From Rhodopseudomonas palustris (GTDB lineage: Bacteria; Pseudomonadota; Alphaproteobacteria; Rhizobiales; Xanthobacteraceae), in assembly GCA_016215605.1 (NCBI GenBank), contig JACRJB010000006.1, positions 3,842 through 67,841 of the forward strand: a stretch of 64,000 nucleotides of DNA, given 5' to 3'. Below are positions 586 to 62,261 of the stretch, piece after piece. Both the position numbers and the translations under genes were made by a program. Position 1 is the first letter of the stretch; every line of letters starts with the position of its first letter. The notes beneath the pieces were generated by a model, which saw only the letters and a program-made list of their open reading frames with translations, was not told where the DNA came from and did not search any database.

Positions 586-610
586 TGCACAGCCTCGCTC
601 CCCCCACTGT

Positions 611-753
611 CGTCACACGCGGGCATGACCCGCGTGTCCATCTTCTTCGAAGAGGATGGATTGCCGGGACAAGCCCGGCAATGACGTGGGTTGTTGTGCA
701 TAGGCAGCGAGTAACAACCGCCGTCATGGCCGGGCTTGTCCCGGCCATCCACG
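611..753. repeat. CGTC-type REP family A: inverted doublet (611-642, 655-686) plus single copy (722-753)
   Basis: cgtc-acacgcggg-catga-cccgcgtgt-ccatc; gatgg-attgccggg-acaag-cccggcaat-gacg; cgtc-atggccggg-cttgt-cccggccat-ccacg. Confidence 0.9.
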
Positions 754-778
754 CCTGGGCATCAAGCGAAGGCTTGCC

Positions 779-17425: not shown

Positions 17426-17466
17426 AGATTGTGTGTGAGACGAATCCACTCCCCGCGCAAAGCGCG

Positions 17467-17610
17467 CTCCCTCTCCCGCTTGCGGGAGCGGGCTGGGGTG
17501 AGGGCGCCCCAGGCAATGAGCTGACTGCTCGCTAAATCAGCCTCGAAGTATGAGCTGCGACGCGCGGCTGCCCTCACCCCAACCCTCCCCCGCAGGCGGG
17601 GGAGGGGGCT
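17467..17610. repeat. Family C doublet
   Basis: ccctctcccgcttgcgggag...ggggtgaggg and ccctcacccc...ccctcccccgcaggcgggggaggg. Confidence 0.85.
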
Positions 17611-17729
17611 CGTCGCGGGCGTGGCGAGGGCTTAGGCTTGCAGATGAGGTCAACGTCTGGCCGCAAGCGGATGCGGCGGCGCTCTGCTAATCTGTCCGGC
17701 GATTCCGGTCGGGCGATCAGGAGACCACC

Positions 17730-18611: not shown

Positions 18612-18654
18612 GGCGGATTGATGATGAGGCGCCGCGCTCGCCCCAAGCACAGCG

Positions 18655-18798
18655 AGCCCCCTCCCCCGCCTGCGGGGGAGGGTTGGGGTGAGGGCGACGC
18701 GAGCGATTACCTCTCGATGTAGTTCCAGGGAGCTGGGGCAAGCGCTGTGCCTGCGGCGCCCTCACCCCCGCCCTCTCCCGCACGCGGGAGAGGGGGCT
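18655..18798. repeat. Family C doublet
   Basis: agccccctccccc...ggggtgaggg and ccctcacccc...gggagagggggct, between convergent genes. Confidence 0.85.
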
Positions 18799-21373: not shown

Positions 21374-21388
21374 CCTGCCGCATTGCCC

Positions 21389-21424
21389 CGTCATTGCGAG
21401 GAGCGAAGCGACGAAGCAATCCAG
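21389..21424 (+). repeat. CGTC REP family D, single copy
   Basis: cgtcattgcgaggagcgaagcgacgaagcaatccag, identical to 62177-62212. Confidence 0.9.
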
Positions 21425-31876: not shown

Positions 31877-31923
31877 GCGGCGACCGTCGTTCTCAGACGA
31901 GGCCGGCCCGCTTGTCGCAGCGA

Positions 31924-32054
31924 GCTCCCTCTCCCGCCTGCGGGAGAGGGTTGGGGTGAGGGCGCCCCGAGCAGTGAGTCCGCGATCCGTGGAGAGGAGT
32001 ACCCTTACCCCGGATCGCCGCGCGATCCGACCGCTCCCGCAAGCCGGAGAGGTT
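31924..32054. repeat. Family C doublet
   Basis: ccctctcccgcctgcgggagagggttggggtgaggg...ccggatcgccgcgcgatccga...; close to the 60377-60505 copy. Confidence 0.85.
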
Positions 32055-32384: not shown

Positions 32385-32416
32385 ACGGCCGGCGCTGCGT
32401 CTTCCGCCGATAAAAG

Positions 32417-32534
32417 CCATGGCCGGGACGAGCCCGGCCATCACGGAGGTCAGCGCTCTCCAACAAAGCTCAGCATCTTCTGGCCATGACGGGAGCCTCC
32501 CCCGTCATGGCCGGGCTCGTCCCGGCCATCCACG
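32417..32534. repeat. Family A REP cluster
   Basis: Reverse copy 32417-32445, truncated reverse arm 32482-32491, forward copy 32503-32534. Confidence 0.85.
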
Positions 32535-41154: not shown

Positions 41155-42294
41155 TCAGCTCCGCGGCGAACTCCGGCCGGAATCGACGGTGAAAATCTCG
41201 GCGCCGGCGCCGATCTCGGCGAAGGCTGCAGGGTCGGCGCCCGTCATCCAGACCTGGGCGCCGAGCTTCGCCAGTTCGTCGAACAGCGCCGCGCGCCGCG
41301 ACGGGTCGAGATGCGCCACGACTTCGTCGAGCAGCAGCAGCGGCGTGATGCCGGTCATCTCCGAGACCAGCTGCGCATGCGCCAGCACCAGGCCGATCAG
41401 CAGCGCCTTCTGCTCGCCGGTGGAGGCGTCGCGCGCCGGCATCGCCTTCGGCGCGTAGATCACCTCGAGATCGGTCAGATGCGGGCCGTCGAGGGTGCGG
41501 CCGGCGGCGGCGTCGCGCGGCCGGCCCTCGCGCAGGATGGTGCGATAGCGATCCTCGACCGCGGTGGCCGGCTCGGTCAGCAGCGCGCTTTCCATCCAGC
41601 CGTCGAGCATGATCTTGGCCGACGGAAACGCCGAGGCGGCGCCGCGGGCGTCGAGCATCGCGGCCAGCCGCATCGCGGTCTGGCCGCGCATCGCCGCCAC
41701 GGCGACCGCGAGTTCGGCGGTCTCGCGTTCGACCGCATCGAGCCAGTGCGAGTCGGCGTTGCGATAATCCTCGAGCAGGCGGTTGCGTGATCTGAGACTA
41801 CGGTCGAGCGCCGAGACCCGGCCGGAATGCTGGCTGTCGATCGCCAGCACCAGCCGGTCGAAGAACCGCCGCCGTTCCGATGCCGCGCCCATGAACAGCC
41901 CGTCCATCGCCGGCGTCAGCCAAACCATGCGCAGATGATCGCCGAACGCGGTGGCCGAGCCGACCGGCTCGCGGTCGATCCGGCAGCGCCGCGTCGTCGC
42001 GGTCTCGGCGCGCGTCGGATCGATCCCGGTGCCGAGCGTCGCCAGCCCGAGCGCGCCCTCGACCTCGGCCGCCACCGCCCAGGAGCCGTCGCCCTGATTG
42101 TCGGCGACATCGTCGAGCGTGGCGCGCCGCAGCCCGCGCCCCGGCGACAGAAACGAGATCGCCTCCAGGCAATTGGTCTTGCCCGCCCCGTTCGCCCCGA
42201 CCAGCACCACCCGCTCCCCACGCGTCGTCAGCCCCGCCACCCGATAATTGCGGAAATGCGTCAGCGTCAGGCGTGTGATGCGGGAGGCGGTCAT
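41155..42294 (-). CDS. recF: DNA replication/repair protein RecF
   Basis: GANGAGKTN, RRRFFDR, STGEQK, LLLDEV. Confidence 0.95.
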   Translation of the reverse strand: MTASRITRLTLTHFRNYRVAGLTTRGERVVLVGANGAGKTNCLEAISFLSPGRGLRRATLDDVADNQGDGSWAVAAEVEGALGLATLGTGIDPTRAETATTRRCRIDREPVGSATAFGDHLRMVWLTPAMDGLFMGAASERRRFFDRLVLAIDSQHSGRVSALDRSLRSRNRLLEDYRNADSHWLDAVERETAELAVAVAAMRGQTAMRLAAMLDARGAASAFPSAKIMLDGWMESALLTEPATAVEDRYRTILREGRPRDAAAGRTLDGPHLTDLEVIYAPKAMPARDASTGEQKALLIGLVLAHAQLVSEMTGITPLLLLDEVVAHLDPSRRAALFDELAKLGAQVWMTGADPAAFAEIGAGAEIFTVDSGRSSPRS

Positions 42295-42321
42295 GGGGCA
42301 GGAACGTTCGTGTTCTGAAGC

Positions 42322-42688
42322 TGTCATTGCCGGGCTTGACCCGGCAATCCATCGTCCGCGTCAGCGGACAATTTCATCATAGATATCGCGCCATTCCGGA
42401 TTGCCGGCGACGATCAGGTCGACCTTCCACTCGCGAGACCAGTGCTTGATGTTCTTCTCGCGCTGGAGCGCCGCAGTAATCGTGTCGTGGGCTTCGAAGT
42501 AGACCAGAATTTTGATGTGATAGCGCTTGGTGAAGCTTTCCGCGAGCCCTTCGCGGTGCTCGTACACCCGCCGCACGAGGTCATTCGTCACGCCGACATA
42601 TAGCGTGCCACCAGGGGCGCTGGCGAGGATGTAAACCCAATAGGTCATCCGAAGAGGATGGATTGCCGGGTCAAGCCCGGCAATGACG
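42322..42688. mobile_element. Putative REP-flanked GIY-YIG nuclease cassette
   Basis: Perfect 31-bp inverted repeats (42323-42353, 42657-42687) enclosing a single gene, inside dnaN-recF; mobility is inferred. Confidence 0.6.
42361..42648 (-). CDS. GIY-YIG nuclease family protein (95 aa)
   Basis: YWVYIL...LYVGVTNDLVRRVYEH...EKNIKHWSREWK..LI..NPEW; catalytic Tyr/Arg/Glu pattern present. Confidence 0.9.
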   Translation of the reverse strand: MTYWVYILASAPGGTLYVGVTNDLVRRVYEHREGLAESFTKRYHIKILVYFEAHDTITAALQREKNIKHWSREWKVDLIVAGNPEWRDIYDEIVR

Positions 42689-42739
42689 AACTGTGCTCAC
42701 TCGTCGAGGTCCGGTGCGGGAAGATATCCCCGGTATGCC

Positions 42740-43858
42740 TTACACCCGCATCGGCATCAGCACGTACAGGGCGTTCTTCTTGTCGCGGTCCTGGATCAGG
42801 GTCGGCGAGCCGGGGTCGGCGAGTTTCAGCACCGCGACTTCGCCTTCGATCTGGGCGGCGATGTCGAGCAGATAGCGCGAGTTGAAGCCGATATCGAGCG
42901 GGTCGGAGGCGTATTCGACTTCGAGCTCTTCGGTGGCGCTGCCGGAATCCGGATTGGTCACCGACAGCACCAGCTTGCCGGCGCTGAGCGCCAGCTTGAC
43001 GGCGCGGCCGCGCTCGCTGGAGATCGTCGAGACGCGATCGACCGCGGCTTCGAAATCCTTCTTGTCGACCACCAGTTCCTTGTCGTTGTTCTGCGGAATC
43101 ACGCGGCCGTAGTCCGGGAAGGTGCCGTCGATCAGCTTCGAGGTCAGCACCACATTGCCGATGGTGAAGCGGATCTTGCCGGCGGAGAGTTCGAGGCCGA
43201 TCTCGGCGTCGTTGTCCTCGATCAGCCGCTGCACTTCGCCGACGGTCTTGCGCGGCACGATCACGCCCGGCATGCCGGCGGCGCCGGCGGGCTGCGCCAG
43301 ATCGACCTGCGCCAGGCGATGGCCGTCGGTCGCGACCACGCGCAGCTTGCCGTCCTTGGCCGAGCCGGCGGTGTGCAGATAGATGCCGTTGAGATAGTAG
43401 CGGGTCTCTTCGGTCGAGATCGCGAACTGGGTGCGGTCGATCAGCCGCTTCACGTCGGAGGCGGTGAGGCTGAACGAATGTGACATCTCGCCGGCGGCGA
43501 GATCCGGGAAGTCGCTCTCCGGCAGCGTCTGCAGCGTGAAGCGCGAGCGGCCGGCGCGGATCGCCAGCACCGAGCGGTCGCCGTCGCTTTCCAGCACGAT
43601 CTGCGAGCCGTCCGGCAGCTTGCGGACGATGTCGTAGAACATGTGCGCCGGCACCGTGGTCGAGCCCGCGGTCGCGGTCTCGGCCGGCAGCGTCTCGGTG
43701 ACTTCGAGGTCGAGGTCGGTCGCCTTCAGCGACAGCTGGGCGTTTTCGGCGCGCACCAGCACGTTGCCGAGGATCGGGATGGTGTTGCGGCGCTCGACCA
43801 CGCGGTGGACGTGGCCCAGCGACTTCAGAAGTTGCGCGCGTTCGACCGTGACCTTCAT
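42740..43858 (-). CDS. dnaN: DNA polymerase III beta clamp
   Basis: RRNTIPIL, ATDLD, STEETRYYLNG, ATDGHRL, GTFPDY, LMPMRV. Confidence 0.97.
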   Translation of the reverse strand: MKVTVERAQLLKSLGHVHRVVERRNTIPILGNVLVRAENAQLSLKATDLDLEVTETLPAETATAGSTTVPAHMFYDIVRKLPDGSQIVLESDGDRSVLAIRAGRSRFTLQTLPESDFPDLAAGEMSHSFSLTASDVKRLIDRTQFAISTEETRYYLNGIYLHTAGSAKDGKLRVVATDGHRLAQVDLAQPAGAAGMPGVIVPRKTVGEVQRLIEDNDAEIGLELSAGKIRFTIGNVVLTSKLIDGTFPDYGRVIPQNNDKELVVDKKDFEAAVDRVSTISSERGRAVKLALSAGKLVLSVTNPDSGSATEELEVEYASDPLDIGFNSRYLLDIAAQIEGEVAVLKLADPGSPTLIQDRDKKNALYVLMPMRV

Positions 43859-48622: not shown

Positions 48623-48665
48623 TACCAAGGCCCGCCTCCGGCAGGCTCTCCACGCGCACTACGCA

Positions 48666-48690
48666 CCTCTCCCGCAAGCGGGAGAGGGGG
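48666..48690. repeat. Family C single hairpin
   Basis: cctctcccgcaagcgggagagg downstream of msrA. Confidence 0.65.
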
Positions 48691-48839
48691 CGCGCTGCGG
48701 CTGGGGAGGGGCGCGCTGCGGCGAGCGGCAGACGCCTGAGTCTGAAAAGGCGCAACCGGCGAGCGCCCCGCGAAACTACGCAACCGCCAACAATTTGTTA
48801 ACCCTAACGGGGCATAAACGGAGCATCTCGTGGAGAGGG

Positions 48840-51833: not shown

Positions 51834-51922
51834 CGTCATGGCCGGGCTTGTCCCGGCCATCCAGGTTTGCGATCCGGCGCGATTTTCAAGACGTGGATGC
51901 CGGCTATCGGCGAGGCATGGCG
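51834..51922. repeat. Family A REP plus degenerate inverted partner
   Basis: cgtcatggccgggcttgtcccggccatcca, then gtggatgccggc...gcatggcg. Confidence 0.75.
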
Positions 51923-54403: not shown

Positions 54404-54554
54404 CGTCATTCCGGAGTCGCGATGTTCCGCTCCGTCATTCCGGGGCGCGAACGCAGTTCGCGAACCCGGAATCCCGAGCTGTCCTGCTCCACCTGACGTT
54501 GCCAGAACCTCTGGATTCCGGGTTCACGCGCGTTGCGCGTGCCCCGGAATGACG
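54404..54554. repeat. Family B doublet (54433-54554) preceded by a duplicated head (54404-54414)
   Basis: cgtcattccgg twice; partner ggattccgggttc...gccccggaatgacg. Confidence 0.85.
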
Positions 54555-60201: not shown

Positions 60202-60318
60202 CGTCATTCCGGGGCGCGCCAAAGGCGCGAACCCGGAATCCAGAGCTGAGGACACGTCCAGAGGATGAACAGCGCGAGATTCCGGGTTCGCTCGCTGCGC
60301 GGGCGCCCCGGAATGACG
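60202..60318. repeat. Family B doublet
   Basis: cgtcattccggggcgc...acccggaatccag and gattccgggttcg...gccccggaatgacg. Confidence 0.9.
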
Positions 60319-60376
60319 AAAGGACATGGAGAGCGTGGACTGGCGTTGTGCACTCCCTCTCCCCGCGCACGGCGCG

Positions 60377-60505
60377 CTCCCTCTCCCGCTTGCGGGAGAG
60401 GGTTGGGGTGAGGGCGCCCCAGGCAGTGACTCAATGACTCGTCGAGAGGAGTGCCCTCACCCGGATCGCTGCGCGATCCGACCTCTCCCGCAAGCGGGAG
60501 AGGTT
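60377..60505. repeat. Family C doublet
   Basis: ccctctcccgcttgcgggagagggttggggtgaggg...cctctcccgcaagcgggagagg. Confidence 0.85.
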
Positions 60506-62109: not shown

Positions 62110-62176
62110 CGTGTCCCTCGTGGTGATGCGTGCCTGAGCTTCTGGTTGTTGTTGTTGAAGTCGACTAATCCCACTC

Positions 62177-62261
62177 CGTCATTGCGAGGAGCGAAGCGAC
62201 GAAGCAATCCAGAGCTAAGCGCTCGGGGCTTGTGGATTGCTTCGCTTCGCTCGCAATGACG
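62177..62261. repeat. Family D doublet
   Basis: cgtcattgcgaggagcgaagcgacgaagcaatccag and tggattgcttcgcttcgctcgcaatgacg. Confidence 0.9.

Follow-up and report, generated by a model that had tools for sequence, protein, structure and literature searches.

Positions 611-686 of the window (the whole 64-kb stretch of DNA that was analyzed) are a dimer of two unlike CGTC-tagged REP hairpins, whose CGTC tags point outward and whose CCA tails point inward. We favor as the probable explanation that this doublet is an ordinary unlike-unit REP dimer lodged in a normally tiny rlmN 3′ spacer, and that its subtype is cognate to the Ssn-like nuclease resident in the same window.

The first arm (611-642, plus strand) consists of a CGTCA tag, a stem formed by CACGCGGG and CCCGCGTG around the loop CATGA, and the tail TCCATC. 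The second arm (655-686) reads CGTCA TTGCCGGG CTTGT CCCGGCAA TCCATC on the minus strand. Between them lies a 12-nt near-palindromic spacer (643-654; TTCTTC followed by GAAGAG), which is composed of two mirrored tail extensions. Read from the tag, the repeat unit therefore comprises CGTCA, a stem of 8-9 bp, a 5-nt loop, the complementary stem and the TCCATC tail, followed by a lineage-specific, pyrimidine-rich tail extension that takes the form (C/T)TCTTCG in the window. Judged from the sequences, the REP unit extends beyond its palindrome. As ssDNA, 605-692 is predicted to fold into a three-way junction (-30.4 kcal/mol, z = -6.5) of the two REP hairpins and a central 10-bp stem made of tails and spacer, in which cgaagag pairs with ttcttcg. 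A 29-nt core of the repeat occurs six times in the window at ≤3 mismatches, with 0 copies expected from 100 shuffles.

A third REP is present at 722-753 (plus strand; CGTCA TGGCCGGG CTTGT CCCGGCCA TCCACG), so the rlmN 3′ spacer contains three REPs rather than two. In the source metagenomes, this third copy stands out by its very high depth. Together with arm 2, it forms a tags-inward inverted repeat (657-695 and 713-751; 39 nt, 90% complementary) that extends 9 nt past the CGTC tags (GTGGGTTGTT / AACAACCGCC). Sequence comparison gives arm 2 a chimeric appearance: the loop and the flank beside its tag resemble the third REP, and the stem, tail and extension resemble the REP found next to the nuclease gene.

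As the preliminary description had stated, 648-686 matches 42650-42688 at 38 of 39 bases (CGAAGAGGATGGATTGCCGGGACAAGCCCGGCAATGACG). The lone mismatch is an A/T difference in the hairpin loop (ACAAG versus TCAAG), and the identity breaks off abruptly on either side. The match arises because the right arm of the doublet and the REP before the nuclease gene belong to one REP subtype and have the extension in common; stem, tail and extension are those of that 5′ REP, while the loop is that of the third REP. The shared segment includes cgaagag, which is the right half of the doublet's spacer plus c648. It had been described as a non-palindromic spacer between the REP and the nuclease start codon. 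Its location there is correct; "non-palindromic" does not hold, as in the doublet it forms half of the near-palindrome.

To place this 7-mer, we used 289 REPs of matching architecture, drawn from the window and 161 fetched loci (1.83 Mb). The exact extension, TCCA-TCCTCTTCG, was found in four of the 289. Besides both copies in the window, it is carried by a Bradyrhizobium MAG (L003) at the orthologous 5′ REP and by a Pseudorhodoplanes cassette (L034) at the 3′ REP, where it sits between the stop codon and the REP. When the extension was relaxed to TC-N(0-4)-CTTC(G/A), 17 REPs carried it, comprising seven at gene 5′ ends, two at gene 3′ ends and eight solitary copies. In two of the groundwater metagenomes containing this strain, depth rises in steps from a baseline of ~5 to ~15 (612-643), ~230 (648-651) and ~3500 (core), such that a few per cent of the core depth reaches cgaagag. 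At least six further contigs from the source metagenomes begin to match at 645-650 and have unrelated sequence upstream, and other dimers there have a nearly identical center, for example one in which GCGCATCCATCCTCTTCGGAAAC abuts GATGGATTGCC. Given its presence at the L034 3′ REP, at solitary REPs and on other contigs, the 7-mer is a recurrent REP tail extension and not a sequence specific to the gene leader. The possibility raised beforehand that cgaagag is common to all copies of the family is not what we observed, yet the 7-mer belongs to the repeat unit and not to the gene. Since the exact extension is rare, the 38/39 identity suggests that the two window copies are closer kin than the family generally, a kinship that could reflect copying or gene conversion in either direction.

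The nuclease gene (42361-42648, minus strand; ATG at 42646-42648) encodes a 95-aa, single-domain, Ssn-like GIY-YIG protein and lies between dnaN (42740-43858, minus) and recF (41155-42294, minus). The GIY-YIG domain was recognized at residues 3-75 (Pfam PF01541, E 4e-15) with no further domain, and the translation contains Y6 (VYIL), Y17 (LYVG) and E64 (QREKN), the positions mutated in Neisseria SsnA. By sequence, the closest solved structure is UPF0213 BH0048 (1zg2, E 1.4e-5) from a neighboring GIY-YIG group; PDB and NCBIfam have no Ssn entry, and UPF0213 is the nearest in them. Exact-protein look-ups returned no record of the nuclease or argG sequences, and the 172-aa neighbor protein had an exact match on just one 1.7-kb contig, which breaks at a REP.

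Both ends of the gene are marked by a REP. On the 5′ side (42657-42688, minus strand), the coding strand reads CGTCA TTGCCGGG CTTGA CCCGGCAA TCCATC, 51 nt past the dnaN stop. The 8 nt between this tail and the start codon (42649-42656, minus; CTCTTCGG on the coding strand) are the REP tail extension, so that the coding strand runs ...AATCCATC CTCTTCGG ATG. No Shine-Dalgarno-like sequence was seen between the 5′ REP and the ATG (42649-42688, minus; coding strand ...AATCCATCCTCTTCGGATG), nor 5′ of the ATG in orthologues (e.g., ATCAAACCAAATG). On the 3′ side (42322-42353, plus strand), TGTCA TTGCCGGG CTTGA CCCGGCAA TCCATC lies 27 nt upstream of the recF start. It is adjoined by a 6-bp stop-codon hairpin (42354-42369, minus; GTCCGC-TGAC-GCGGAC), and this side of the cassette reads GTCCGC TGA CGCGGAC GATGGA... 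The hairpin has compensatory GCCCGC...GCGGGC counterparts in the orthologues L002, L013, L014 and L016-L018. The two cassette arms (42322-42353 and 42657-42688) are 97% complementary over 34 nt and have the same polarity as the arms of the doublet. As a side observation, the REPs create spurious open reading frames beginning MDCRVKPGND... (42658-42885, plus; 41798-42352, minus); such frames likely contaminate the protein databases of this clade, and the REPs explain them for genome annotation.

We scored dnaN-gene-recF synteny by the presence of recF plus C-terminal dnaN codons. In 23 of 80 related loci recF begins ~50 nt past the gene and dnaN C-terminal codons precede the 5′ REP, so the dnaN-gene-recF arrangement is conserved and vertically inherited (80-87% protein identity). 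This comparative evidence marks the resident cassette as a long-standing syntenic locus, not a recent insertion or a recently active element.

These features bear directly on the proposal in the preliminary description that internal deletion of the cassette gave rise to 611-686. We found no gene-derived sequence in the doublet, whose 12-nt spacer is accounted for entirely by the two mirrored tail extensions. When the spacer was aligned with the cassette 3′ end, the inner flanks (TCCATC-TTCTTC versus TCCATC-GTCCGC) agreed at only 3/6 bases, whereas the left inner flank agreed with the mirror of the right arm, that is, with the mirrored 5′ extension, at 5/6. The conserved stop-codon hairpin is missing from the doublet. 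Both cassette arms are of the TTGCCGGG/CTTGA type, whereas the doublet arms are CACGCGGG/CATGA and TTGCCGGG/CTTGT. The finding of the same 7-mer at the L034 3′ REP, and of related forms at solitary REPs, as well as the synteny of the cassette in 23/80 loci, also argue against this origin. Lastly, no target-site duplication is visible at the rlmN 3′ site of the window, where no direct repeat surrounds 611-686 or 611-753. We consequently regard a non-autonomous, MITE-like derivation of the doublet by internal deletion of the resident dnaN-recF cassette as very improbable, although the doublet shares the cassette's arm polarity, the 38/39 identity takes in the 7-8 nt adjoining the start codon, and the exact extension is rare among family members. 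It is also true that the doublet, read on the minus strand, consists of a TTGCCGGG arm and then a GCGCGGG-like arm, an order also seen from the 5′ to the 3′ arm of the cassettes at L025, L029, L032 and L048, which are Afipia-, Pseudolabrys- and Pseudorhodoplanes-like loci. The doublet does resemble MITEs in being a short element with inverted ends like those of a gene-bearing unit and in its presence or absence at orthologous sites, but it differs from them in that it has no target-site duplication and no parent-derived internal sequence, and in that the gene of the supposed parent is not a transposase.

Presence and absence were assessed by comparing the rlmN 3′ spacer (window 586-778) in 80 metagenome loci that contain the rlmN C-terminus (L082-L161). 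The distance from rlmN to the next gene is 0-12 nt in many of them (L084, L087, L093, L095, L100, L104, L129, L135, L137, L148 and L151). In other loci the spacer measures 68-190 nt and holds different repeats, including CGTC dimers of the CCGGG type (L083, L094, L096) or the TTGCGAG type (L082, L085, L089, L102) and an unrelated non-CGTC repeat (L090, L097, L103). Loci that are ~93% identical in rlmN differ in the occupancy of this site, and the dimer of the window was found in none of the 80. The window is only 81-86% identical to these loci, too distant for a base-by-base comparison of junctions. The rlmN 3′ site is a hot spot of repeat gain or loss. Four metagenome runs with the same strain (X1-X4) had an unchanged doublet, and no joint skipping the doublet, which would indicate polymorphism within the population, was seen in X1-X4, contigs being assemblies that drop rare variants. 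As a separate observation, ATGGC/ATGCC flanks both sides of the TTGCGAG-type insert in L085 and L089, and a single ATGGC is present at the start codon in the empty loci L087 and L093. This may be a 5-nt ATGGC target duplication in L085/L089, representing one event at ~92% identity.

The position of the doublet 25 nt past the rlmN stop could also be taken to mean that the element acts mainly in RNA, as an rlmN terminator or mRNA stabilizer, and that its likeness to the cassette is a by-product of a hairpin the genome keeps in stock. Arm 1 together with CCATCTTCTT is terminator-like on the plus strand (two such sites versus 0.2 expected), the predicted RNA fold is strong (z = -8.3), and an earlier survey places REPs mostly downstream of coding regions (PMC3733652). 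However, relatives with a 0-12 nt spacer have no hairpin, so the structure is not required at the rlmN locus, and the association of the repeats with the nuclease gene would be left unexplained. We judge a mainly RNA-level element to be highly unlikely. An RNA role as such is compatible with our preferred explanation of a REP dimer cognate to the nuclease: in the rlmN transcript, the first hairpin and its T-rich extension may act as a terminator or RNA stabilizer. An Rfam search returned only sub-threshold, microRNA-like chance matches, over 649-762.

The proposed link between the dispersed repeats and the nuclease gene was borne out across relatives. A scan of one genome per species yielded 543 stretches encoding protein relatives, and the window gene together with the best 80 of these 543 loci gave a set of 81 genes. 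A REP lies within 60 nt of the 5′ end in 62/81 genes and within 60 nt of the 3′ end in 62/81. Cassettes flanked on both sides numbered 61, of which 53 have their tails facing inward; this polarity is shared by 46/63 gene-less REP pairs, 44 of the 46 having unlike stems, and the window doublet is among them. Across several genera and genomic contexts, 7-15 nt separate the 5′ REP from the start codon.

The arms and extensions also follow gene lineage. In dimers with a TTGCCGGG arm, the partner arm is of the GCGCGGG, CCACCGGG or GCCCGGG type, and this unlike-arm pairing mirrors the asymmetry that cassettes of other lineages show between their 5′ and 3′ ends. The window doublet pairs its TTGCCGGG arm with a GCGCGGG-like arm, as do the cassettes of other lineages, and short-spacer dimers of the same construction (TTGCCGGG arm, palindromic spacer, GCGCGGG-like arm) were found at L073, L104 and L014 and on other source-metagenome contigs. 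Tail extensions are lineage-specific and common to cassette arms and nearby solitary REPs: the window's group has TCCATC..CTTCG, L031-L045 have TCCATGCTGA and L048-L050 have TCCATGATG. The first three extension bases equal those of the local cassette REP in 30/115 solitary REPs versus 8.0 expected (0/10000 permutations), a test that overstates independence because the loci are phylogenetically related and some solitary REPs adjoin cassettes.

Furthermore, a second GIY-YIG lineage (L055-L057, L073 and L075; 63-67% identical) is bracketed by REPs with a CTTGT loop and mostly TCCACG tails, a subtype also plentiful in the form of solitary dimers. The observation points to two cognate pairs of repeat and nuclease in Bradyrhizobium genomes. 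In the window this other abundant subtype (CTTGT loop, mostly TCCACG tails) is represented by the third REP (722-753), by a tags-inward pair of the TGGCCGGG/CTCGT subtype at 32414-32534 (32414-32445 minus, 32503-32534 plus), and by a single REP of the TGGCCGGG/CTTGT subtype at 51834-51865 (plus). Additional repeats were noted along the window. Another CGTC-tagged family, CCGTCATTGCGAGGAGCGAAGCGACGAAGCAATCCAG, has two identical copies (21388-21424 and 62176-62212), and a longer CGTC-tagged type, CGTCATTCCGGGG...CCCGGAATCC, occurs at 54433-54554 and 60269-60318; no cognate gene for either lies within the 64-kb window. A separate abundant family with no relation to the CGTC REPs, CTCCCTCTCCCGC-TTGC-GGGAGAGGG plus GGGGTGAGGGCG, often forms inverted pairs (17446-17631, 18634-18798, 31879-32010, 48652-48736 and 60355-60497).

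The association with the gene has to be weighed against spread of REP dimers independently of the GIY-YIG nuclease, through another transposase or through REP recombination and gene conversion. The gene flanks would then simply be two more intergenic landing sites for REPs, and the shared 7-mer would be the outcome of conversion between copies. Several unrelated families, among them the non-CGTC repeat of L090, L097 and L103, have independently entered the rlmN 3′ spacer, so such sites attract repeats whatever the nuclease. The chimeric look of arm 2 fits conversion as well, and no strand-joining or strand-transfer activity is known for a GIY-YIG nuclease. Even so, we consider nuclease-independent spread unlikely. 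It does not sit well with the spacing of 7-15 nt between 5′ REP and start codon that recurs in many genera and contexts, with a REP at each end in 62/81 genes, with the covariation of REP subtype and tail extension with gene lineage, or with the different, CTTGT-loop subtype around the second paralogue lineage. The published association of repeat and gene spans thousands of homologues (PMC11893778), which also argues against it.

To relate the window to known systems, we compared it with published repeat classes. Di Nocera, De Gregorio and Rocco 2013 (PMC3733652) describe a CGTC-tagged REP super-family with families CGTC-1 to CGTC-4, defined by a CGTC/TGTC tag, 8-9 bp stems starting AT, 4-5 nt loops and CCA tails. 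According to that study, the REPs are mostly dimers, often of unlike units, their hosts include Bradyrhizobium and R. palustris, and no dedicated transposase or other enzyme was concluded to serve them. The window REPs resemble this super-family in tag, stem, loop, CCA tail and unlike-unit dimers. CGTC is found at 611-614, 683-686 (minus), 722-725 and 42685-42688 (minus), with TGTC at 42322-42325, and the stem, loop and tail appear as ATTGCCGGG, CTTGA or CTTGT, CCCGGCAAT and CCA. Arm 1 has ACACGCGGG and a stem beginning AC, so it deviates in part from the AT start. The window REPs differ from the super-family in that they bracket a GIY-YIG nuclease gene, as in PMC11893778, and we found no description of a lineage-specific tail extension past CCA in PMC3733652.

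In Neisseria, the member named dRS3/NTS, CGTCATTCCCGCGMAVGCGGGAATCYRG, lies on both sides of ssnA, which encodes a single-domain GIY-YIG protein of 94 aa (Chenal et al. 2025, PMC11893778). SsnA of Neisseria meningitidis recognizes the hairpin exclusively in ssDNA and cleaves a few bases upstream of it; Y6A, Y17A and E64A mutants were reported, and the C after the palindrome is critical for binding while the three bases before it are critical for cutting (PMC11893778). The same paper finds thousands of Ssn homologues flanked by related motifs, and its discussion likens the repeat-gene-repeat layout to RAYT/REP. The window REPs share CGTCATT...AATCC termini with the Neisseria NTS, including the bases critical for binding and cutting. 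The window gene is likewise a small (94-95 aa) single-domain GIY-YIG with Y6, Y17 and E64, bracketed by inverted hairpin repeats that have a CGTCAT(T) tag and an (A)ATCC tail and that are also dispersed in the genome. However, the degenerate search string published for Ssn-related motifs (SRM) does not cover the window stems (TTGCCGGG, CACGCGGG, TGGCCGGG) and matches no REP in the window. The SRM string does match GCCCGGG-stem sister REPs flanking homologues of 62-73% identity (L034, L054, L064, L076 and others). The window system also differs in that its gene is fixed in a dnaN-recF replication/repair operon across Bradyrhizobium-like genomes, and its repeats are mostly unlike-unit dimers rather than large clusters. 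On the features examined, the window gene and its REPs appear to be a Bradyrhizobium-type member of the Ssn/CGTC-REP system. In addition, we noted a CCAC motif often lying 2-3 nt 5′ of the CGTC tag, such as gccacatCGTCAT and tccacctCGTCAT (604-610, L082, L085, L102, L007); its position is the region where SsnA-type enzymes reportedly cut.

REPINs are inverted REP dimers dispersed in intergenic DNA, and the RAYT gene that accompanies them is vertically inherited, usually single-copy and flanked by the same REPs. Several pairs of REP subtype and enzyme can coexist (Bertels and Rainey; Nunvar et al.; Ton-Hoang et al.). The window system resembles a REPIN in layout only: its enzyme is a GIY-YIG nuclease and not an IS200-like HUH tyrosine transposase, and its tag is CGTC and not GTAG.

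How the preferred cognate pairing of dimer and nuclease might operate can be outlined by analogy with Neisseria SsnA. In the ssDNA state, each arm would offer a hairpin on the strand that has CGTC at its 5′ end. The nuclease would bind that hairpin as ssDNA and nick a few bases 5′ of the CGTC tag, so that the nicks would fall just outside each end of the dimer, one per strand. We infer binding and cleavage by the window protein, as well as a possible role for it in dimer spread. With one cleavable site per strand and no known GIY-YIG joining activity, IS200-like peel-and-paste does not follow, and a role of the nuclease in spread would require host repair or copying. Among the literature searched, no paper later than PMC11893778 shows that Ssn mobilizes REPs. 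It is with considerable doubt that we put forward a broader idea, namely that unlike-unit CGTC REP dimers are REPIN-like non-autonomous replicators whose cognate enzyme is the vertically inherited Ssn GIY-YIG nuclease.

The pairing of repeat and nuclease (2025) and the class of CGTC REPs in Bradyrhizobium and Rhodopseudomonas (2013) are already known. The enzyme partner of CGTC REPs was an open question in 2013, and the Ssn work of 2025 gave a candidate but not a proof of spreading. To this, our analysis adds a REP variant of Bradyrhizobium type that escapes the published motif search, a nuclease gene fixed inside the dnaN-recF operon, REP tail extensions that covary with gene lineage, and an orthologous rlmN 3′ site whose occupancy varies, some relatives having it empty and others carrying different REP dimers there. 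If the broader idea were true, it would establish a second repeat-enzyme partnership, independent of RAYT. Subtype-specific pairs would then coexist within a genome, CTTGA-loop/TCCATC repeats with the dnaN-recF gene and CTTGT-loop/TCCACG repeats with another paralogue, with the window doublet as an "empty" unit belonging to the CTTGA-loop/TCCATC pair. The window and its relatives provide concrete substrates and loci with which to ask whether Ssn nucleases drive the turnover of REP dimers.
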